A stretch of DNA of 35,830 nt, from contig CP070695.1 of the NCBI GenBank assembly GCA_020353515.1, forward strand, positions 4,092,291 through 4,128,120, in the 5' to 3' direction. Each line of letters opens with the position of its first letter. The stretch's first letter is position 1. The notes under the pieces are model-generated. The model was not told where the DNA came from and did no database searches. It was given only the letters and a program-made list of their open reading frames with translations. Of the stretch, positions 3,621-13,635 are shown piece by piece. Position numbers and translations under genes: made by a program. This DNA comes from Candidatus Heimdallarchaeota archaeon (lineage in GTDB: Archaea; Asgardarchaeota; Heimdallarchaeia; Hodarchaeales; Hodarchaeaceae).

Positions 3621-4448
3621 ATGTCAAATGAAAACAAGTTCGAACATATAACAATAGAAAAAGAAGAGAAAGGTAATTTTGCAGTAATATCAATAAACCG
3701 ACCTGAAAAGTTAAATGCGCTCCATATCCAAACATTAAAGGAAATTACTGAAGCATTAGAAACGGTAGAAGTCGACCAGAGTGTTCGATGTGTTGTATTA
3801 CGTGGAATTAGGGAATATACAAAGAAACCTGCTTTCTCGGCTGGAGCAGACCTCTCTGATAGGAGAAGTGCCGATCTTGATCCAACTAGTCTAAGACATC
3901 AAAGCCATGCCATGTATCGCAGACATAAATACTACAATTTAATTGAGGAGTTTCCTAAGCCAATCATCGCTGCTATTGATGGATATGCTTTGGGTGGCGG
4001 TTTTGAATTAGTTTTAGTGTGTGATATATCGATTGCTTCAAAACGCTCAATATTTGGATTTCCTGAAATTCAACGAGGTATTTTTCCAGCAAATGGTGGT
4101 ACTCAACGATTAGTCCGGAATGTTGGTAAGATGAGGGCAAAGAGAATGTTATTTTTTGGTGAGCATTATTCCGCTGAACAGATGTTTGAGTGGGGGGTTA
4201 TTTCTTATGTGGTAGATGATGATGAATTTGAGAATTTTGTCCACAAAAAAGCATCGTGGTTAGGAAATGCTGCTACAAACAGTTTATTTCTAATTAAGAA
4301 AAGTATTGATTATGGAACTCAAACACCACTTAATATAGGCCTCCAATTTGAGCAGATGGGTTATGCAATAAACACACGTAGTGAGGACGTTGCTGAAGGC
4401 GTTTCAGCGTTTCTTGAAAAAAGAACTCCAAAGTTCCAAGGAAAATAA
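3621..4448 (+). CDS. Enoyl-CoA hydratase/isomerase (crotonase family)
   Basis: INRPEKLNAL, AFSAGADL, KPIIAAIDGYALGGGFEL and FPEI (both catalytic Glu present); C-terminal AFLEKRTPKF; GAGG upstream. Confidence 0.95.
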   Translation: MSNENKFEHITIEKEEKGNFAVISINRPEKLNALHIQTLKEITEALETVEVDQSVRCVVLRGIREYTKKPAFSAGADLSDRRSADLDPTSLRHQSHAMYRRHKYYNLIEEFPKPIIAAIDGYALGGGFELVLVCDISIASKRSIFGFPEIQRGIFPANGGTQRLVRNVGKMRAKRMLFFGEHYSAEQMFEWGVISYVVDDDEFENFVHKKASWLGNAATNSLFLIKKSIDYGTQTPLNIGLQFEQMGYAINTRSEDVAEGVSAFLEKRTPKFQGK

Positions 4449-4498
4449 CACGATTAAATCTTTTTCAAAAAGAGTCACAGGTAAACAGTGAGAATAAA

Positions 4499-5794
4499 AT
4501 GAATTTAAAAGAAGTTTGGCTTATTGATTATGCTCGAACAGCATTTTCTCGATCTAGACCAAATCAACCTGAACGAGATGTTTTTGGTGAGATCAGAGGA
4601 GACGAATTACTCGCTCAATTATTGATGAAATTTTTTGATGGGAAGTTAGCTGAAAAAGGAATCACAAGAAATGATATTGAAGAGGTTTCTGTTGGAGTTG
4701 CATCAGGAGTATTAGAAAATTGGACTTATGGAGGAAAAATTCCTCTTTATTTGGCAGGATTTCCGAATAAGGTTTCCTCATTTTTTATAGATAAACAATG
4801 TGCCTCCGCTGGTGCAGGAATGCATATGTTGGCGATGGAAATAATGACAGGATATACCAACTGTGTATTAGCGACTGGTTTTGAACATATGACACGAGTA
4901 AGAAGAATTGGAATAGATCCAGCTATAGAGAGATATATGGATGAAAGCAGTATATTTTACCATCCTGAATATGATATGCAAAATTCTGTCAATATGCTAC
5001 AAACAGCACAAAGATTATATGAAGAGGAGATACCAAAATTTACCAAGGAAGACTTAGATAAATTTGGTGTAAGATCACACAATTTAACAATAAAGAGTCA
5101 AGAAGAAAAGTGGTTTACATCTGGGATGAACGGTGGAGAAATCATCCCAATTGAAGGACATGTTGAAGGAAATGTTAACGAGCCAATGATGGTAGAAAGG
5201 GACATGGCTGCAAGAAAATCGACTTTGGAGGGAGTTGCTGGATTACGGAGAATAACCACTCCATTCTACTTAGAGAAAAATGGCGGAAAAAAAGGATATA
5301 TTGAAAGGGAAGGTACTACAGAAGGAGTAATAACTGCGGGAAACTCATCTCCTCTTAATGCAGGGGCTACAGCAGCCATTCTTATGGAAGCAGAAGAAGC
5401 AAAAAAGAGAGACTTGGAACCAATGGCCCGAATAATTTCAATTGGTTGGGGAGGAGTCGATCCTCGAGTTATGGGCCGAGGACCTGTTCCTGCTACTCGT
5501 AAAGCACTAGAACATGCAAATTTAACTGCTGAAGATATTGATTTTTGGGAGATAAATGAAGCATTTTGTATAGTCGCCTTGAATTGTATGGATAAATTTA
5601 ATATTCCTGAGGAAAAAGTTAATATTAAGGGAGGATCAACTGCAATTGGTCATCCATTAGGTGCAACAATGATTCGTCTTACAGGGACTTTGGCACGAAT
5701 ATTAAAAGAGAAGAAAGGTAGATACGGTGTAGCTAATGCATGTGTGGGAGGAGGCCAAGGATTGGCAACTATCATTGAAAATCTAAACGCTTAA
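4499..5794 (+). CDS. Acetyl-CoA acyltransferase (thiolase)
   Basis: DKQCASAG (acyl-Cys), TAGNSSPLNAGA, EINEAF, AIGHPLGAT and ACVGGGQG. Confidence 0.96.
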   Translation: MNLKEVWLIDYARTAFSRSRPNQPERDVFGEIRGDELLAQLLMKFFDGKLAEKGITRNDIEEVSVGVASGVLENWTYGGKIPLYLAGFPNKVSSFFIDKQCASAGAGMHMLAMEIMTGYTNCVLATGFEHMTRVRRIGIDPAIERYMDESSIFYHPEYDMQNSVNMLQTAQRLYEEEIPKFTKEDLDKFGVRSHNLTIKSQEEKWFTSGMNGGEIIPIEGHVEGNVNEPMMVERDMAARKSTLEGVAGLRRITTPFYLEKNGGKKGYIEREGTTEGVITAGNSSPLNAGATAAILMEAEEAKKRDLEPMARIISIGWGGVDPRVMGRGPVPATRKALEHANLTAEDIDFWEINEAFCIVALNCMDKFNIPEEKVNIKGGSTAIGHPLGATMIRLTGTLARILKEKKGRYGVANACVGGGQGLATIIENLNA

Positions 5795-5859: not shown

Positions 5860-6204
5860 TTAGTATCTGGGTAGTCTTTTTTGACTCGTTGTATCCAGGA
5901 GTAAATGAGACAAATAACCAAGAATAAACCTTAATAGAAGATAAGTGAATATAGATTGATTTCCAACAATTAAAAAAAGAAACAGAACAGTCAAAATTAA
6001 TAGAACTACAACAGAATGAAAAACGCGCCTACTCTCCTCACCATGAGGATTTTCGATCAGATTAGGCACCACTGAACCGAAAACAGTGAGGCCTATGAAG
6101 ATTATATACAAGATAAAATCAAAATATTCAATGAAACTCTGCTCGTATACCCCCGCGAGTAAAGCAATGACAAATCCCATTATCATATGCTCCTCATTTT
6201 TCAT
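5860..6204 (-). CDS. Small YdjM-like membrane metal-dependent hydrolase homolog with partly degenerate motifs
   Basis: N-terminal His, GSVVPN (usually PD), SRRVFHS (usually HRxxxHS) and GYLSHLLLD; 3-4 TM segments. Confidence 0.72.
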   Translation of the reverse strand: MKNEEHMIMGFVIALLAGVYEQSFIEYFDFILYIIFIGLTVFGSVVPNLIENPHGEESRRVFHSVVVLLILTVLFLFLIVGNQSIFTYLLLRFILGYLSHLLLDTTSQKRLPRY

Positions 6205-6213
6205 AATATCATC

Positions 6214-7143
6214 CTATGAGCTGATGAACATCAAGTCCCCTTCTTCCTCCTGTACTTCTTTTAAGATTTGTTTATACCAAAAGCGTGTTAATCTTTCGAT
6301 GGTTCCTGTGTGGTAGGGTCCTCCCTCAATCCAGGATTTACGGGATTTTCCAGGATGATCTGGATACTCTTGCTTAAAGATCTGTTTTTCAGGAATACCT
6401 TGTACTTTATATTCCCGTAATTTGTCCAAATACGCTTCCATCCATTTCCTGAGCTGAATTAAATAATCTTTTCCGACTACTGGACCACGATTAGGAACAA
6501 TTCTATCGATTTCTAATTCTTCCCATTTACGATACAGATTCACCCCCGTAATCGGCCATATAAAAGGCGGTGAAAAGCTCTGAATGACGTTTCCTGAAAA
6601 GAGAACTTTATCCATGGGACAGTAAATGGAGACTGCTCCTGCTATTGTTACTTCCAGTTCTAAAGGATAAATATCTGAGCCTAACCAGTTATTTTTTGAA
6701 AACCCAGTTGTAGGAACAAAAATACCATATTTCATCAGACTCTCATGGACTTTATTATCTTCTGGGACTTGGCGGATAATCCATTCTCTGTATGAAACAT
6801 CTACTCCCTGTTTTATATTTGTTCGAATACCTGATTTTGTTACGGATGAACTAACAACAGTCACATCCTTAAATGCCTCCATTCCCCAGATTATATCCCA
6901 CGATTTAGTTGTTAGGATTAAATGCGAGGTTTTCTTCTCTGTCCGTTCTTCCATATCCTTCCTGAATTTCAGGGCTAGATCAGCATGTGGACTAGAATTG
7001 ACAAAGATTAATTCTTCTGGAAGGATAATACAACTCATATTAGAGTAAAAATATGGTCTAATTAGCGTTTCTGTTTCCTCAGTCATCAATGCAGTCATAA
7101 TAATATTTGGTGTAACCTCAATGTAGTTTAGGTCTGTTGACAT
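6214..7143 (-). CDS. Metallo-beta-lactamase-fold protein, predicted catalytically inactive
   Basis: The motif order fits the MBL fold (SNMSCI..LIFVNS, HLILTTKSWDIIWG, KVLFSGN, IVPNRGPV), but the His/Asp metal ligands are substituted. Confidence 0.75.
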   Translation of the reverse strand: MSTDLNYIEVTPNIIMTALMTEETETLIRPYFYSNMSCIILPEELIFVNSSPHADLALKFRKDMEERTEKKTSHLILTTKSWDIIWGMEAFKDVTVVSSSVTKSGIRTNIKQGVDVSYREWIIRQVPEDNKVHESLMKYGIFVPTTGFSKNNWLGSDIYPLELEVTIAGAVSIYCPMDKVLFSGNVIQSFSPPFIWPITGVNLYRKWEELEIDRIVPNRGPVVGKDYLIQLRKWMEAYLDKLREYKVQGIPEKQIFKQEYPDHPGKSRKSWIEGGPYHTGTIERLTRFWYKQILKEVQEEEGDLMFISS

Positions 7144-7163
7144 AAAATCAATTCCAAGCTCTT

Positions 7164-10025
7164 CTAAAGATACTCCCTCAGGTATTGACCAGTATAAGAT
7201 TCCTGTACTTTACTTACCTCTTCTGGTGTACCTGCAGTGACAAGATACCCTCCTTCACTTCCTCCTTCTGGCCCAAGATCAATAATGTAATCTGCCATTT
7301 TAATGATATCAAGATTGTGTTCAATCACAATAACACTATTTCCCGCGTCGATGAGCTTATTTATAGTATATAGAAGTTTCTTTATGTCAGCTAGATGGAG
7401 ACCTATGGATGGTTCATCAAAAACATACAGATTGTGTTCATGACGTTTTAATTTACCCAGTTCATTGGCTAATTTTATCCGTTGCGCTTCTCCTCCACTA
7501 AGTGTTGTCGAAGACTGGCCCAGCTTGAGATAACCAAGTCCAAGATCATTCATGACTTTTAATTTGTGGTGAATTAAACGGACATCTTTAAAGACGGTTA
7601 AAGCCTTCTCAACGGGAAAATCTAGGATTTCTGCAATATTATATCCTTGATACTCAATTTCTAATATTTCAGATCTGAATCGCTTTCCCTTACATATAGG
7701 ACACAATGTTCGGACATCAGGCATGAATTGTAATTGTGTCACAATTTCACCTGTACCTTCACATTCTTCACAACGTCCTGAATCTTTTGAATTATAACTG
7801 AATGTAGTTTTTGTATAAGCACGTTTCTTGGATTCAGGAAGTTTTGAGAATATTTCTCTAATCTTATCATAAAATCCAACATATGTTGCTGGATTGGAGC
7901 GTGAGGTTCTTCCTATGGGGGACTGGTCCATAATTCTCACATCTTTGAGGTGTTCTAGGCCTTCAATGTTCCTATGTTTTCCAGCTGTGACCCTTCGATC
8001 ACGGAAACGTGAAATAAGCTTATTCGTTAAAATATCACTTACTAAACTGCTTTTTCCTGAACCTGATACTCCAGTAACACAAATTAACATACCTAATGGA
8101 ATTTTCACATCAATATCCTTGAGATTATTTTCTGATGCTCCAGAGACTGTTATATAATCACCATTAATTGGTCTCCTCTTTTTTGGTGTCTTGATGATCT
8201 TTTTCTTTGAGAGATATTGTCCTGTAATCGAGTTAGAACATTTTTTGATTTCCTCTACGGTTCCCTCTGCAACAATTTCTCCACCATTATCCCCAGAACC
8301 AGGACCTAGATCCACAATCCAATCAGCAGCCTCCATCATCTCAGTATCATGTTCAACAACAATCACTGTATTCCCAATATCCCTTAATTTTTTAAGAGTA
8401 TTGATGATCCGAAAGTTATCTCGATGATGGAGGCCAATACTCGGTTCATCCAAGATATAAAGCATCCCCATTAATCCTGAACCTATCTGAGTGGACATTC
8501 TAACCCGTTGGATTTCCCCACCTGATAAAGTGTGGGCATTCCTGTTTAAACTGACATAACCAACACCAATTTCACAGAGAAGGTCTAATCGCTTTTTAAT
8601 CTCTTCAATTATTGGTTCTTCAATATGTTTACGTTCCTTATCTACTGATAAGGTATCTAAAAAAGATCTGAGCTCAGTTAAAGTCATATCACCAAGCTCG
8701 TGGATATTTTTTCCATTTAAACGTACTAGTAATCGTTGTGAGAGCAGTTTTGCCCCCTGACAATCAGGACAAATGACCTCTGTCATGCCCCTAAAGTAGA
8801 TGTGATCGTCCATGGTTCTTGCAGATCGGCGAGCTTCATTTCGGACTCTTTCTTTGTACCAACGATTAATGGGAGGAATCAGACCTTCAAAAGCTACTTT
8901 TTTACCTACATTCGAAAAAGTTTGTTCTAGGTCATCGGGTTGTTGAAGCACAAATTTTTCTCCTCCTGTACCATAGAATATAATATCACGATATTCTGCT
9001 TTTAAATCTCTGAATGGAGTATCGAGACTAAAATTATAATGTTTGGCTAAGCTCCAAATCACTAGATATTTAAAAGGGTGTTTTAGAGTAAAAATATTCT
9101 CATTGATAGCTCCTTTCCGAATACTTTTGCCTTCTTTCTCAATGATTAACCATGGAACAGCCCTCCGATATACCCCAAGACCACGACATGTTAAACAAGC
9201 ACTATCACCTTCATTAGGAGAGAAATACCATGGTAATAGTTCACCCATTACGAGATGATGATCTGGACATGCGAAATCTTGGTAAAAAGCCGTATAATTC
9301 TCATCCTTTTCTGGAATATGGATCTTAATGTATCCTTCTCCAATTCTCTGACATTCTCGAACTGTATCTAACATAATCTGGTGGAGATCGGAGTTGACTT
9401 CAAATTTATCAATGAAAGCTTCAATATGATAGTCCTTCTTCTCATCAAGGGCTATCTGATCTCCAACATCGAATTCCTGTCCATCGATAAGGATTTTACC
9501 AATCCCTTTTCTTCGCAGGGAATCAAATAAGTACCGATAATCTTCATCGTAGATTTTGAAAACTGGGGCATAAATTTCAACCATAGTATTTTGAGGTAGG
9601 GATAGTAAGTTCTCTACGATCTGATTTGCATTCTTTACTGAGACCTCTTGGTCACAATAAGGACAATGTGCCTTCCCTTTCGTTGCATAAAGAAGACGAA
9701 GATAGGTTGATATATCTGTTAACGTTCCCACAGTAGAACGATAGTTCCGTAAACTCTGATGTTGTTCAATAGACACAACAGCTGATAATCCAAATATGAA
9801 ATCAACATCAGGCCTTCGAACTTGAACGACTCGTGATCTTGCATACGTCGATAACGATTCGAGGAAAAGTCTCTGTCCTTCACCAAAGATTACATCAAAA
9901 GCAAGGCTAGATTTTCCTGATCCACTTACACCAGTTACTACAGTTAATTGGTTCCTGGGTATTTTCACATTGATATCCTTAAGATTATTTTGACGAGCTC
10001 CAATCACTTCAATTGTGTTTCTCAT
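7164..10025 (-). CDS. uvrA: UvrA-family ABC ATPase (excinuclease ABC subunit A homolog)
   Basis: GARQNNLK; two Walker [10 protein letters not shown]; two LSGGE; [10 protein letters not shown] and [10 protein letters not shown]; Zn sites CPYC/CPDH, CLTC/CPDC and CEEC/CPIC; [16 protein letters not shown]. At 953 aa it includes the segment corresponding to the UvrB-binding domain. Confidence 0.95.
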
Positions 10026-10027
10026 CT

Positions 10028-10963
10028 TTATTCCTCTCCTCCAATGTAAAAAACTGTTGTTTCATCCACTGTAACCCGACTTCTTGCCGTGATTCTCTTA
10101 GGTTTTGCCCCTAACATCAAGACACCAAGATCACTCAACCAACTTATTGACTCAAACAAGCTTAAGTTTTGAAATCCAGTTGTTTTCTGAAAGTGTCGGT
10201 CTATTTCGGAATGACTTCTCTCTCCAATGCTTTCTTTTAGATAATCAAATAATGGTTTGAAGAACTTGTTAGTATTTTTATTTAGAAAATCTTCAACAAG
10301 ATTTAATGTGTATTCTACACTTTCTTTAGAAAACCCCTTTTTGAACACATTCGATATTATATTTTCTAATATCTGATTTGTTGATACTTCCTGGGCTTGA
10401 GTAATAATATCTCTCCCTGGAATTTTTCCTTCCAGGAAAATTAAAATCCGTGCAATTTCCTGAGTTGCTAAGATTACCCAGTTAAAGCTATTTTCGAGAG
10501 ATTCCTCAATGTAAAGCGTTTTCTTGATTTTATGTATACTACTTACCAATATTTCAGAGCGTACGAGGATTTGGAGCTCCCTATCTCTCTCTGCAACAGT
10601 AAACATATCCCGATTAAACTCTGAAATCCCTCTATCAATTGAATGAATCAGTTTGCTGGTAGAGAGCATATGATGCATCATACTTCCTTGAAGAAATCTC
10701 TGTTGATTTCGACGATAATCATTTCGAGACATAATATAAGCGTTAATTTGTACGTCATTCTCTCTTACTACAATTAAATCCTGAAGGACTCGTTCCTCAT
10801 TAGTGACAATCACCATGTCGATATCTGATTTTTCCCACACAATACCGTTGGTGTAGCTGCCAAGTACAAACACAGCGAGGATACTATTATCAGGTTCAAT
10901 TCTGTTCATAAATAACTCGAGGGCCTTATCAAACTTCTGACGTAGTTTTTTATCTTCCACCAA
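10028..10963 (-). CDS. Pol-beta-superfamily nucleotidyltransferase-domain protein with helical middle domain and probable C-terminal winged helix
   Basis: VLGSYTNG..WEKSDIDMVIV (hGS..DxD); C-terminal SHSEIDRHF..SISWLSDLGVL followed by a beta hairpin; GGAGG at 10975-10971; start TTG 10963 or GTG 10960. Confidence 0.8.
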   Translation of the reverse strand: MVEDKKLRQKFDKALELFMNRIEPDNSILAVFVLGSYTNGIVWEKSDIDMVIVTNEERVLQDLIVVRENDVQINAYIMSRNDYRRNQQRFLQGSMMHHMLSTSKLIHSIDRGISEFNRDMFTVAERDRELQILVRSEILVSSIHKIKKTLYIEESLENSFNWVILATQEIARILIFLEGKIPGRDIITQAQEVSTNQILENIISNVFKKGFSKESVEYTLNLVEDFLNKNTNKFFKPLFDYLKESIGERSHSEIDRHFQKTTGFQNLSLFESISWLSDLGVLMLGAKPKRITARSRVTVDETTVFYIGGEE

Positions 10964-11185
10964 ACTATTTCCTCCGGTAAATAGAAGAAAGTAATCATTT
11001 AGTAAAAGAAAATCTCTCTTTTAAAAGAGGAGGATTTCCACAAAAGACTGAGGAGAGGATAAATTCCCCTCTATAAAAGTATTTTTTTCATGGCAAGCCG
11101 GAGGATTTTCAATTTGGCAATTTGGAAAATATCAAGCCAAATTTCGTCAGATTATCAATTTTAATTTGATCAAATTTAAAATAAT
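10964..11185 (-). promoter_or_regulatory. Structured leader/promoter region of the NTase-uvrA operon
   Basis: Palindrome AATTTGATCAAATT (11163-11176) overlaps a TTTAAAT box. Stem-loops lie at about 11105-11130, 11054-11072 and 11008-11039, the last followed by a U-tract on the minus strand. Positions 11098-11105 are complementary to the SD region 10970-10977. Confidence 0.45.
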
Positions 11186-11429
11186 TTTTGTTATTTAGAT
11201 TTTGGTTGTGGTAATTCGGCTATTCAAAGGTTAGTTCTGTTTTAAGAATTTCAATGTATCACTTTATCTTACAGGCCAAAAAATAATATGAAACACTAGA
11301 ACAATATACATCTGCGCCTGAAGTTTTTGAACAAACCAGACTCCTTGATTACATGCAAAAAGCCAGTCAAGAAGTCTTTGTGAGACAATAAGATACTTGG
11401 AGAATGAAAAAAATAGGAAGGAGTTGAAC

Positions 11430-12189: not shown

Positions 12190-13635
12190 ATGCCACATTT
12201 TTTAGAGAAACTGATGAATCCTAAGTCAGTCGCTTTTCTTGGGGCAAGTAATAATTTTACAACCATGGGTACTGGACAACTCTACGTCTTACGTACTCGT
12301 TTTAAAGGAAAAATTTACCCAGTTCATCCAACTGAAACATCAATTTTAGGTTTTCCCGCGTTCAAAACACTGGAAGATCTACCTGAAGTTCCAGACATTC
12401 TTATTATTGTCCTGCCAACTCGACTTGTTATTGATTATTTAGAGAAAGCAGGTCAATGTGGAATTCGTCACGTGATCATAGTATCTGCGGGGTTCAGTGA
12501 GGTCGGTGAATCGGAAAATCAAACCGAATTAAATAGAATTGCAGACAACTATAGAATGCGTTTTATAGGGCCTAATTGCATTGGGATAATTAATCTTCAC
12601 TGTTCAGAGGGAATTTTTAATTGTACTTGGTTTCCTTTCGAGCTCCCCGAAGGCCAACACGGTAACGTTTCGCTGATAAGTCAATCTGGTTCATGGATTT
12701 CCCAGATCTTGATTTGGATGGAAAGAAGAGGAATACGCCTCGGAAAAGCGGTCTCTGTTGGAAATGAGGCTAACATTAACATCACAGATTGTATGAAATA
12801 TTTTCGTGATGACCCTGACACCGAGGTAGTTGGGATCTACATCGAAGGAGTGAAATGTGAAGGACGAAGGTTTGCAAAGGCACTTCGTGAATTAGCTAAA
12901 AAGAAACCCGTTGTTGTACATTATGTTGGAGGAACAAAGGCTGGATCAAGAGCAGGAATGTCTCACACTGCTTCATTAGGAGGAAAATCCTCAATTTATG
13001 GGACCGTCTTTAAACAAGCAGGTGTTATCGAAACATCAACAATGGAAGAATTGTATGAATATCTTCACGCGTTTTCCCTCGTTTACCCTCCTAAAGGTAA
13101 CCGGGTTGGACTCATAACAAATTCGGGGGGACCTGCAGTGACATTTGCAGATAGTTGTGAGAGATATGGTCTACCTGTTCCTTCGTTTTCATCTGAACTC
13201 CAAGGAAAAATTAGAGATGTTGTCCGATCAACAGCTTCAGCAAATAATCCTATCGATCTAACTTTCGACATGAATATGGATTTGTTTTACAGGGAGGTTC
13301 CCCGTCTCATATGGCAATCGGGGGAGGTGGATGTTCTTTTAATATACGGTGTTTTTGGGGGAAACATGATGGAGCGAATGTTTAAATTTGGGAACAATGA
13401 ATTCATGGAAATGCTCCCAGCAACATTCTTTGAAAACATGTTGAGAGAAAATTTGAAGGATTTCGTTGCTTGGATTCATGAGAATAAGATTCCAGTGTTA
13501 ATAAGTTGCTTGGATACTGCTGATGAAGCAGTAGCGTATCTTCAGAATCAAGGTATTGCTGTTTTTAAGTGGCCTTCAATGGCAGCAAGAGCAATGAAAG
13601 CTATGGTGGATTATTATTCTAAAAGGGGTAACTAA
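12190..13635 (+). CDS. acdA: ADP-forming acetate/acyl-CoA ligase alpha subunit (CoA-binding protein)
   Basis: PKSVAFLGAS, IGPNCIG, ISQSG, VSVGNEA, SHTASLGG (phospho-His), ITNSGGP and NPIDLT. No ATP-grasp beta domain is fused. Confidence 0.88.
   Translation: MPHFLEKLMNPKSVAFLGASNNFTTMGTGQLYVLRTRFKGKIYPVHPTETSILGFPAFKTLEDLPEVPDILIIVLPTRLVIDYLEKAGQCGIRHVIIVSAGFSEVGESENQTELNRIADNYRMRFIGPNCIGIINLHCSEGIFNCTWFPFELPEGQHGNVSLISQSGSWISQILIWMERRGIRLGKAVSVGNEANINITDCMKYFRDDPDTEVVGIYIEGVKCEGRRFAKALRELAKKKPVVVHYVGGTKAGSRAGMSHTASLGGKSSIYGTVFKQAGVIETSTMEELYEYLHAFSLVYPPKGNRVGLITNSGGPAVTFADSCERYGLPVPSFSSELQGKIRDVVRSTASANNPIDLTFDMNMDLFYREVPRLIWQSGEVDVLLIYGVFGGNMMERMFKFGNNEFMEMLPATFFENMLRENLKDFVAWIHENKIPVLISCLDTADEAVAYLQNQGIAVFKWPSMAARAMKAMVDYYSKRGN

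Follow-up and report, generated by a model that had tools for sequence, protein, structure and literature searches.

A Full-Length UvrA Paralog Paired with a Nucleotidyltransferase: A Probable, Previously Undescribed Module for DNA-Damage or Genotoxin Response in Bacteria and Asgard Archaea

What could a UvrA protein do when its gene is joined to that of a nucleotidyltransferase (NTase) and not to uvrB or uvrC? This question is raised by a 35,830-nt stretch of DNA (hereafter the window), the minus strand of which carries four co-oriented genes separated by spacers of 2, 20, and 9 bp (Table 1). An initial annotation made from the sequence alone had described this arrangement as a candidate novel operon, and both the common strand and the spacing agree with the list of open reading frames. 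Its statement that the window contains no uvrB or uvrC is also correct. Neither gene occurs within the 35,830 nt; the genome has a single copy of each, at a distance of about 0.5 Mb.

Table 1. Features of the NTase-UvrA Locus
Feature	Position	Strand	Size or evidence
NTase with winged helix	10028..10963	-	311 aa, TTG start
UvrA paralog, full-length	7164..10025	-	953 aa
MBL-fold protein, metal-binding motifs lost	6214..7143	-	309 aa
YdjM-like membrane protein	5860..6204	-	114 aa
Conserved 5' leader and promoter region of the operon	10964..11200	-	alignment, RNAalifold

The conserved core of this locus consists of two genes, NTase and UvrA, which adjoin each other in all 26 informative loci from Heimdallarchaeia. 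Archaeal loci with an NTase homologue contain UvrA directly downstream (17/17), and further archaeal loci of the linked UvrA clade contain the NTase whenever the flank is complete (9/9), either upstream (five loci) or as a tandem double NTase downstream (four loci). In bacteria, the pair is present in 76 of 80 loci from several phyla; no other gene is conserved across these 80 loci, and the upstream neighbors were heterogeneous in the 10 bacterial loci that we sampled. Hence, the adjacency that had drawn attention to this locus is conserved across Asgard and bacterial genomes, but the four genes do not form a conserved unit. A literature search found no paper on this pairing, which is probably undescribed.

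The two remaining genes are add-ons, the MBL-fold gene being confined to this Hodarchaeales genus and the YdjM-like gene to part of it. Homologues of the MBL-fold protein are limited to Hodarchaeales-type MAGs, and the gene follows UvrA in nine loci of the genus. Its sequence aligns with that of P0236, a true MBL hydrolase (PF00753), at 35% identity across 94% of the protein, and there is a weak NCBIfam match to a SoxH-related MBL family (E = 3.4e-7). In the alignment with P0236 every metal-ligand motif is replaced: THLHRDH by TTKSWDI (TxSxDI for HxHxDH), GGHS by a gap and IAGA with loss of the GH histidine, TGD by SGN (D to N), and PGHG by PNRG (H to R). Judged by these residues the protein is predicted to be catalytically dead, as the initial annotation had asserted. 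The description of the YdjM-like protein as degenerate is equally justified, since it lacks the C-terminal third of the YdjM domain (PF04307, match limited to profile positions 1-108 of 176; 37.3 bits, cutoff 29, E = 2.4e-9). This protein is 72-75% identical in three related genomes, in at least one of which (L037) a full-length 335-aa YdjM follows the short gene. Both the dead MBL-fold protein and the short membrane protein of YdjM type would be acquisitions of the module within this genus.

By sequence criteria, the window UvrA is a paralog and not the NER copy of its genome. The genome contains four UvrA-like genes next to one uvrB and one uvrC, which eliminates the possibility that the window encodes the only UvrA. 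The housekeeping UvrA (G000:3733279-3736047, 1360 bits) outscores the window protein, which matches TIGR00630 with 1107.6 bits (cutoff 729.8, coverage 5-937) and falls just under the strict equivalog NF001503 (1138.3 vs 1147). An 825-aa UvrA paralog without UvrB-binding region (class II-type) is encoded elsewhere in this genome. Separate canonical UvrAs were also found in five of five bacterial genomes, with 1335-1500 bits vs 1117-1234 for the linked copy. The phylogenetic tree unites the 37 linked UvrAs in a single clade (SH-aLRT 100, stem length 0.5) that does not group with canonical NER UvrA. The archaeal members are monophyletic (98) inside a Bacillota-containing group (100), and the NTase tree contains the same subclades. 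The module would have been transferred as a whole from Bacillota-like bacteria into Heimdallarchaeia.

In length and domain order the window UvrA resembles class I UvrAs (E. coli UvrA; G. stearothermophilus UvrA, PDB 2R6F), with two ABC ATPase modules, three zinc modules, a UvrB-binding-type domain, and an insertion domain. PF17760 (UvrA_inter) matches at residues 133-238 (E = 7e-18) and PF17755 (UvrA_DNA-bind) at residues 293-400. Both Walker A lysines and both LSGGE signatures are intact, consistent with the intact ATPase motifs of the initial annotation, and the diverged signature strings quoted there are indeed found in the protein. Like class I proteins, the linked UvrAs retain the Walker A lysines, the signature motifs, and the DNA-binding arginines; within the linked clade no variation occurs at the Walker A lysines or at R712, and 33 of 37 sequences have R724.

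The positions that distinguish this clade from class I lie elsewhere. In E. coli UvrA, R216 and E222 belong to the surface that contacts UvrB and Mfd (PMC3025350). The R216 equivalent is Arg in 15 of 15 canonical UvrAs, which came from both domains, but in only 1 of 97 NTase-linked UvrAs; the E222 equivalent is Glu in 15 of 15 and 75 of 97 sequences, respectively. The window protein contains I217 and R223 at these two positions, and its UvrB-binding domain is 25% identical to that of the canonical UvrA from the same genome, compared to 46-59% for the ATPase modules. In addition, zinc module 1 has His in place of Cys as its fourth ligand in 95 of 95 linked UvrAs (in the window protein CPYC and CPDHH flank the PF17760 domain). 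Unlike class I UvrAs, the linked proteins form a separate clade beside a true housekeeping copy, and their genes are tied to an NTase gene instead of uvrB. These residues indicate that the NTase-linked clade has diverged at the UvrB surface with its ATPase and DNA-binding residues kept. Since the UvrB-binding-type domain is retained and most of these proteins still have Glu at the E222 position, a residual interaction with UvrB is possible.

The nearest functional analogy to the window UvrA is provided by the class IIa proteins DrrC and Ecm16, which are extra UvrA homologues outside NER that act on drug-bound DNA in an ATPase-dependent manner without UvrB or UvrC (PMC9328131). This parallel, already drawn by the initial annotation, fails at the level of architecture. 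Class IIa UvrAs miss zinc finger 1 and the UvrB-binding domain (PMC9328131), whereas the window UvrA contains zinc module 1 and a UvrB-binding-type domain, so that a DrrC/Ecm16-like architecture can be ruled out. Furthermore, class IIa proteins act alone and are encoded in antibiotic biosynthetic clusters; the window UvrA has an obligate NTase neighbor and no such cluster.

The NTase gene matches the Pfam Polbeta NTase family PF18765 (E = 2.6e-7), and its own family comprises 1148 representatives at E ≤ 1e-3. The protein (AF2 model, pLDDT 87) consists of a Pol-beta/ANT(4')-like NTase domain with the hallmark motif GS...VWEKSDID, a helical bundle, and a C-terminal winged helix. Foldseek matched this model to 3C18, an NTase-like protein from Exiguobacterium (TM 0.64/0.68) that is also found by sequence profile (E = 8e-7), and to ANT(4'), kanamycin nucleotidyltransferase (6UN8/1KNY, TM 0.54/0.65, E = 6e-8). 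The similarity extends over the NTase domain and helical bundle (TM 0.54-0.68) and includes a common GS...DxD catalytic motif, at only 13-15% sequence identity. The NTase family shows no variation at G35, S36, or D49 and little at D47 (conserved in at least 90%); the first Asp of DxD is Asn in f3 sequences such as those of L049 and L030. In contrast to ANT(4'), the window NTase is obligatorily paired with UvrA, carries many invariant basic residues, and ends in 82 additional residues with a winged-helix fold (winged-helix proteins match at TM 0.5-0.65); conserved aminoglycoside context is absent around its gene. Assignment to a curated resistance NTase family was rejected, because the best NCBIfam match, ANT(9), reached 18.8 bits vs a cutoff of 340.

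The proposal that UvrA works together with this NTase is supported by co-folding of the two proteins, which gave ipSAE values of 0.72, 0.73, and 0.69, while the best of three controls gave 0.00. The partner was modeled with pLDDT of at least 83, and at least 90% of the contacts were common to the runs. In the calibration of this tool 58 of 80 solved complexes and 2 of 110 mismatched pairs scored at or above the applied mark, figures that are only a rough guide here since we used our own alignments. The modeled interface comprises residues 146-224 (including 216-217) and 316-406 of UvrA and residues 80-127 and 245-307 of the NTase. In the linked clade these interface residues are no better conserved than the rest of the same domains (0.53 vs 0.54). 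The NTase is predicted to dock on the former UvrB-binding domain and on the insertion domain of UvrA. As in the UvrA-UvrB complex, the modeled partner sits on the domain that interrupts ATPase module I of UvrA and covers a surface that includes the R216 position; unlike UvrB, a helicase to which it is unrelated, the NTase partner is predicted to touch the insertion domain as well. This model modifies the idea of a DNA-binding wing on the NTase: the winged-helix fold is present, but it may be a surface for protein docking rather than for DNA binding, or may serve both.

The region upstream of the NTase gene is also conserved. Alignment of eight loci of the genus gave a mean column identity of 85% for the leader, and the Shine-Dalgarno sequence GGAGG and the TTG start of the NTase gene are invariant in 8 of 8 orthologous loci. 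RNAalifold predicts a helix between an anti-Shine-Dalgarno segment of the leader (UCCUCCGGC) and the Shine-Dalgarno region of the NTase gene; one G-C pair of this helix is replaced by A-U in two loci. A search of Rfam returned no family matching the leader. In this Hodarchaeales genus the module would be preceded by a conserved leader able to sequester the ribosome-binding site. In one archaeal family the module directly follows an ArsR-HTH plus GyrI-like small-molecule sensor, which may hint at a role in drug resistance. In Paenibacillaceae, 17 of 45 loci carry a Cheo-box-like site upstream vs 2.4 expected, a count inflated by related species.

The presence of the NTase as a neighbor in archaea and many bacterial phyla, together with its predicted docking at the UvrB site, argues that the pair is probably an undescribed module for response to DNA damage or genotoxins. 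With some confidence we favor the view that the two genes encode a dedicated complex of a full-length UvrA paralog and an ANT(4')-fold NTase with C-terminal winged helix, operating as follows. The UvrA paralog would remain an ATP-driven scanner of distorted DNA, as its retained ATPase, zinc, and DNA-binding residues suggest. Contact to UvrB would be lost, and the NTase would occupy the former UvrB-binding and insertion domains instead. UvrA would bring nucleotidyl transfer to DNA lesions or DNA-bound genotoxins without UvrB and UvrC, and the candidate targets of this transfer are the bound compound, the DNA, or UvrA itself.

Alternatively, the locus may encode a signal transduction system. The UvrA paralog would sense the damage, and transcriptional output would come from the NTase-winged-helix protein, by itself or as a fusion with an ECF sigma or AraC domain; a lesion would release or activate the NTase protein, which would control a regulon independently of LexA. 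Such fusions do occur. The NTase relatives P0058, P0074, and P0199 are N-terminally fused to ECF sigma regions 2 and 4 and P0082 to an AraC HTH, and in L164 and L165 the sigma-fused NTase directly precedes a UvrA paralog. These architectures are no less compatible with regulation than with an effector function. The resemblance of the C-terminal winged helix to PadR/MarR regulators and the position of the NTase gene as the first of the operon, behind a conserved leader, also fit this idea. However, true repair enzymes such as Ada can be fused to regulators as well, and therefore the fusions do not tell a regulatory from an effector reading. The catalytic GS and DxD residues, which would be needless in a pure regulator, persist across the family and in its sigma-fused members, and the modeled winged helix contacts UvrA and is not free for DNA. 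We consider signal transduction rather unlikely; it is compatible with the favored complex, and the two are not exclusive.

It is distinctly improbable that the window UvrA is a backup or specialized NER protein that still passes lesions to the single UvrB and UvrC, with the NTase as an accessory or regulatory factor. The full class I architecture with its PF17760 domain, a score above the TIGR00630 equivalog cutoff, and the frequent retention of E222 are what such a protein might display. The Cheo-box-like sites of Paenibacillaceae loci suggest uvrA-like SOS control. Against this stand the loss of the otherwise invariant R216 in 96 of 97 linked UvrAs, their deep, separate, and well-supported branch, the genomic linkage to NTase instead of uvrB or uvrC, and the modeled occupation of the UvrB site by the NTase. 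Defense against phages or mobile elements, with an ABC-ATPase as DNA sensor and the NTase as effector acting through signal synthesis or modification of invading DNA, is very hard to credit. Such a function could account for the patchy occurrence of the module in the genus (10 of 21 genomes) and for the transfer across phyla and domains suggested by the trees; in addition, the NTase fold weakly resembles Hailong HalB, and the PADLOC model mad3 hits UvrA in its C-terminal half. This last match, however, reflects the shared ABC module only. Within UvrA, the C-terminal ABC half alone matched PADLOC models (mad3 and mad8), the MBL-fold and YdjM-like proteins gave no PADLOC matches, those of the NTase were at noise level (E = 1e-4 or worse), and no PADLOC system was matched as a whole. 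Homologues were absent from 72,556 plasmid and 50,697 phage records, and the bacterial loci contained no conserved defense-island neighbors.

Returning to the dedicated NTase-UvrA complex, a bolder version is conceivable, if doubtful: UvrA may have swapped UvrB for the NTase, and nucleotidyl transfer, combined with an output through the winged helix, sigma, or AraC domains, may turn lesion sensing into a response, transcriptional or chemical, that depends neither on LexA nor on excision repair. If true, this would be a new pathway for sensing DNA damage or genotoxins that is common to bacteria and Asgard archaea.

The open reading frames bear out the initial annotation in that the four co-oriented genes are separated by gaps of only 2, 20 and 9 bp, and the UvrA motif strings quoted there are present in the window UvrA, which scores 1107.6 bits against TIGR00630 (cut-off: 729.8). 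The TTG start of the nucleotidyltransferase (NTase) gene and its GGAGG Shine–Dalgarno sequence are invariant at eight orthologous loci. Judged by the names given to proteins nearly identical to its own, the organism belongs to the Hodarchaeales of the Asgard class Heimdallarchaeia. The proposed four-gene operon holds as far as the tight spacing in the window is concerned, but the conserved unit consists of NTase and UvrA only: the MBL gene follows UvrA solely in the genus of the window, and YdjM does so in only part of that genus. Homologues of the MBL-fold protein came from Hodarchaeales-type genomes only. Aligned with an intact MBL hydrolase from Bathyarchaeota (35% identity), this protein has lost every metal-ligand motif and can be called dead, as the annotation had it; in G011, which has diverged furthest within the genus, several histidines remain. 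Immediately downstream of its MBL gene, the same G011 genome encodes a Ras-family small GTPase. The YdjM-like protein had been described as degenerate, and its Pfam match is partial. Since the protein is conserved in three genomes (72–75% identity) and is followed by a full-length YdjM in at least one of them (L037), it is, judged by this conservation, a maintained short form and not debris.

Positions of the features discussed (window coordinates unless a genome, G, or a compared locus, L, is named)
Feature	Position	Strand	Remarks
NTase, 311 aa	10963..10028	-	Pol-beta-type NTase domain, PF18765
UvrA, 953 aa, full-length	10025..7164	-	TIGR00630, UvrA_inter and UvrA_DNA-bind domains
MBL-fold protein, 309 aa	7143..6214	-	only a weak MBL match, NCBIfam
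YdjM-like protein, 114 aa	6204..5860	-	Pfam YdjM, N-terminal two thirds matched
Operon 5' leader	10964-11200	-	
Fatty-acid/acyl-CoA metabolism genes	3621-5794; 12190-13635	+; +	operon flanks
Canonical UvrA	G000:C1:3733279-3736047	+	1360 bits, above window copy
Other two UvrA-like genes	G000:C1:3573621-3578453; 4643086-4645497	+; -	
Ras-family small GTPase gene	L042:13133-13738		
ArsR-HTH + GyrI-like/Cass2 regulator	L044:7159-8022; L046:7313-8182; L047:6897-7763		family f4
Clostripain (C11) peptidase, about 700 aa	L043:3921-6032; L047:11684-13777		after module
Linked-clade UvrA, then 626-aa double NTase	L057-L060		family f4 genomes G043, G027, G029, G047
Sigma-fused NTase genes (metagenomes)	L164:3224-4660; L165:244-1683		UvrA paralog directly after
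Aminoglycoside 3-N-acetyltransferase	L075:3844-4614		NTase neighbour, single locus
Pentapeptide-repeat protein	L115:4223-4981		neighbour of NTase without UvrA, single locus
SocA/Panacea antitoxin-like protein	L140:5945-6541		neighbour of NTase without UvrA, single locus

Conservation is unusually high in the operon 5' leader (column identity of 85% in 8 loci), which includes the invariant block GAAAAAAATACTTTTATAGAGGGGA. Its UCCUCCGGC segment is able to pair with the Shine–Dalgarno region, and one compensatory change (G-C to A-U, 2 loci) occurs in this pairing. An Rfam search of the leader returned no family; the sole match was below threshold and due to chance. The operon is flanked by genes of fatty-acid and acyl-CoA metabolism (enoyl-CoA hydratase, thiolase, acetate-CoA ligase alpha-type). 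These flanks vary between genomes of the genus, so the module occupies variable surroundings.

Among 61 related genomes we found the NTase at 17 loci in three families, with identities down to 26%, and at all 17 a UvrA that is 51–92% identical to that of the window lies directly downstream. Searching the class Heimdallarchaeia with UvrA gave a bimodal result, with one group at least 50% identical and the remainder at most 47%. Retrieval of 13 more loci of the former group revealed an NTase upstream of UvrA in five, a 626-aa tandem double NTase downstream of UvrA in four, and a contig end interrupting the other four. The two-unit form would fit an NTase that works as a dimer. In family f4 of this class, a regulator with an ArsR-type HTH and a GyrI-like/Cass2 small-molecule-binding domain precedes the module by 10–16 bp or overlaps it, and at one f4 locus (L046) an MFS transporter follows the module in place of the clostripain peptidase.

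The linkage extends to bacteria. The NTase profile reached 1148 representative clusters at E ≤ 1e-3, proteins from Paenibacillus and Clostridium included, and a scan for the hallmark peptide VWEKSDID in one genome per species yielded 334 loci. The best 80 of these are all bacterial (Paenibacillaceae, Chloroflexota, Armatimonadota, Latescibacterota, Gemmatimonadota, Acidobacteriota and Abditibacteriota). At 76 of them the NTase is succeeded on the same strand by a full-length UvrA; one further locus is incomplete and three are without UvrA. The NTase–uvrA adjacency seen in the window is a strict linkage, conserved across Heimdallarchaeia and many bacterial phyla. No other gene is conserved across the best 80 bacterial loci. 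Among 10 upstream genes sampled, the sole regulator was one of AraC type, so a drug-sensor regulator beside the module is not a general feature of this bacterial set. Plasmid and phage collections contained no NTase homologues, and none of the PADLOC defence models fits the module. Two pairs of loci (L113/L133 and L119/L122) have nearly identical UvrA and NTase in metagenome-assembled genomes labelled Latescibacterota and Gemmatimonadota (branch lengths of about 0.03–0.07), a sign of either recent transfer or genomes with wrong labels or faulty binning.

In a quick IQ-TREE phylogeny (LG+G4, 62 UvrA sequences), the 37 NTase-linked UvrAs group together in a single clade (SH-aLRT 100, stem length 0.5) apart from canonical bacterial and archaeal UvrAs, double forms and class II forms. 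This widespread clade of full-length proteins comprises sequences from Bacillota, Chloroflexota, Armatimonadota, Gemmatimonadota, Latescibacterota, Acidobacteriota and Heimdallarchaeia. The archaeal members are monophyletic (98), fall within a group that includes Bacillota copies (100), and adjoin a Symbiobacteriaceae sequence (87). If the root lies outside the linked clade, this topology indicates a single transfer from Bacillota-like bacteria to Heimdallarchaeia. The NTase tree, likewise from a quick search and resolved only at its shallower nodes, contains the same sub-clades; both genes thus move as a unit.

The window UvrA is a paralog and clearly not the only UvrA of its genome (4.94 Mb, single contig), which encodes four UvrA-like proteins including this one. 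An 825-aa form is without the UvrB-binding region and is encoded about 12 kb from uvrB, and a 1643-aa protein is a tandem-duplicated form. Other families of the class commonly have double UvrAs of 1900–1980 aa. As the initial annotation stated, the window is devoid of uvrB and uvrC; since single copies of both are located about 0.5 Mb away, their absence from the window is uninformative alone. A separate canonical UvrA was also present in all five bacterial genomes checked (1335–1500 bits vs 1117–1234 for the linked copy).

The sequences of the linked UvrAs (E. coli UvrA numbering, L163) retain the core functional residues. No sequence of the clade deviates at the Walker A lysines K37 and K646 or at the DNA-binding R712, and 33 of 37 keep Arg at R724. 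R216, on the UvrB/Mfd interaction surface of UvrA (PMC3025350), is Arg in 15 of 15 canonical UvrAs from both domains. Just 1 of 97 linked proteins has Arg there, and Gln is the commonest residue among them. At position 222, 75 of 97 linked UvrAs have Glu; the window UvrA has Ile at the R216 position and Arg at the E222 position. All 95 aligned linked UvrAs have His as the fourth ligand of zinc module 1, in contrast to canonical UvrAs, where this ligand is Cys and never His. Further signatures lie in the UvrB-binding-type domain (E161 and R171 invariant, 37/37; Q135, L143 and E150 at least 93%), where the window protein is only 25% identical to the canonical UvrA of the same genome, compared with 46–59% in the ATPase modules. 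Membership of the window UvrA in class IIa (DrrC/Ecm16) was rejected since the defining domain loss is absent.

The confident AlphaFold2 model of the NTase (pLDDT 87) combines an NTase domain with a helical bundle and, at the C-terminus, a helix-helix-helix-hairpin unit. Its best structural matches are the uncharacterised 3C18 protein (TM 0.64/0.68 over full length), which the NTase sequence profile also reaches (E 8e-7), and kanamycin nucleotidyltransferase ANT(4') (TM 0.54/0.65). The 82 C-terminal residues folded alone match winged helices of PadR and MarR regulators, ORC/Cdc6 and a chain of the Wadjet JetABC complex (TM 0.5–0.65), with weak E-values of 0.06–0.3. Catalytic residues of the GS and DxD motifs are conserved, and the median isoelectric point of 5.4 gives no clear pointer to the substrate.

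Co-folding UvrA residues 1–620 with the NTase (27-row alignment each) afforded ipSAE values of 0.72, 0.73 and 0.69, as opposed to 0.00 for the best of three controls, with partner pLDDT of at least 83 and at least 90% of contacts common to the runs. Of 80 solved complexes in the calibration of the co-folding tool, 58 reached this mark, as did 2 of 110 mismatched pairs; these counts apply only roughly here because we used our own alignments. No solved complex of such a type is known to us, which makes recall of a known structure by the model unlikely. The predicted interface involves residues 146–224 of UvrA (the former UvrB-binding domain, including 216–217 at the R216 position) and 316–406 (the insertion domain), and residues 80–127 and the winged helix (245–307) of the NTase. 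Because these residues are no more conserved than the surrounding domains, conservation lends the interface no independent support. The co-folds themselves support binding between UvrA and NTase, with the NTase predicted to dock on UvrA.

Several features hint at function. NTase family members P0058, P0074 and P0199 are fused to N-terminal ECF sigma regions 2 and 4, and P0082 has an N-terminal AraC-type HTH. A Cheo-box-like site (GAAC-N4-GTTC, at most one mismatch) lies 30–150 bp upstream of the NTase gene at 17 of 45 Paenibacillaceae loci (L063–L131), where 2.4 were expected from the rest of the loci, a statistic inflated by related species. This observation suggests that the Paenibacillaceae modules may be under LexA control. 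The GyrI-like sensor in one archaeal family points to small-molecule genotoxins. The best fit to these data is a dedicated complex in which the UvrA paralog and the NTase would act together on DNA that is damaged or bound by a toxin, separately from UvrB and UvrC; we infer its biological role and its catalytic output as well as the independence from UvrB. A serious alternative, compatible with such a dedicated complex, is that the module serves in signalling.

In textbooks, UvrA follows a single known partner logic, in which the lesion is passed to UvrB. To our knowledge, the only recognised exceptions are truncated class II paralogs. In the literature, which we covered incompletely, we found no UvrA–NTase pairing, no ECF sigma group tied to UvrA and no class of full-length UvrA paralogs; the paper on ECF reclassification does not mention UvrA. 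In the linked UvrA, the UvrB-binding domain appears to be rewired to accept a nucleotidyltransferase. Should the complex prove real, it would represent a new output of the UvrA damage sensor, would assign a function to a large NTase family that is so far uncharacterised and has more than 1000 representative clusters, and may uncover a new way of resisting DNA-binding toxins or a new pathway of damage signalling. Such a pathway would bear on archaea since these organisms, as far as we know, are without LexA. The phylogeny also makes this module what looks like a clear case of a bacterial two-gene module that moved into the archaeal lineage closest to eukaryotes.
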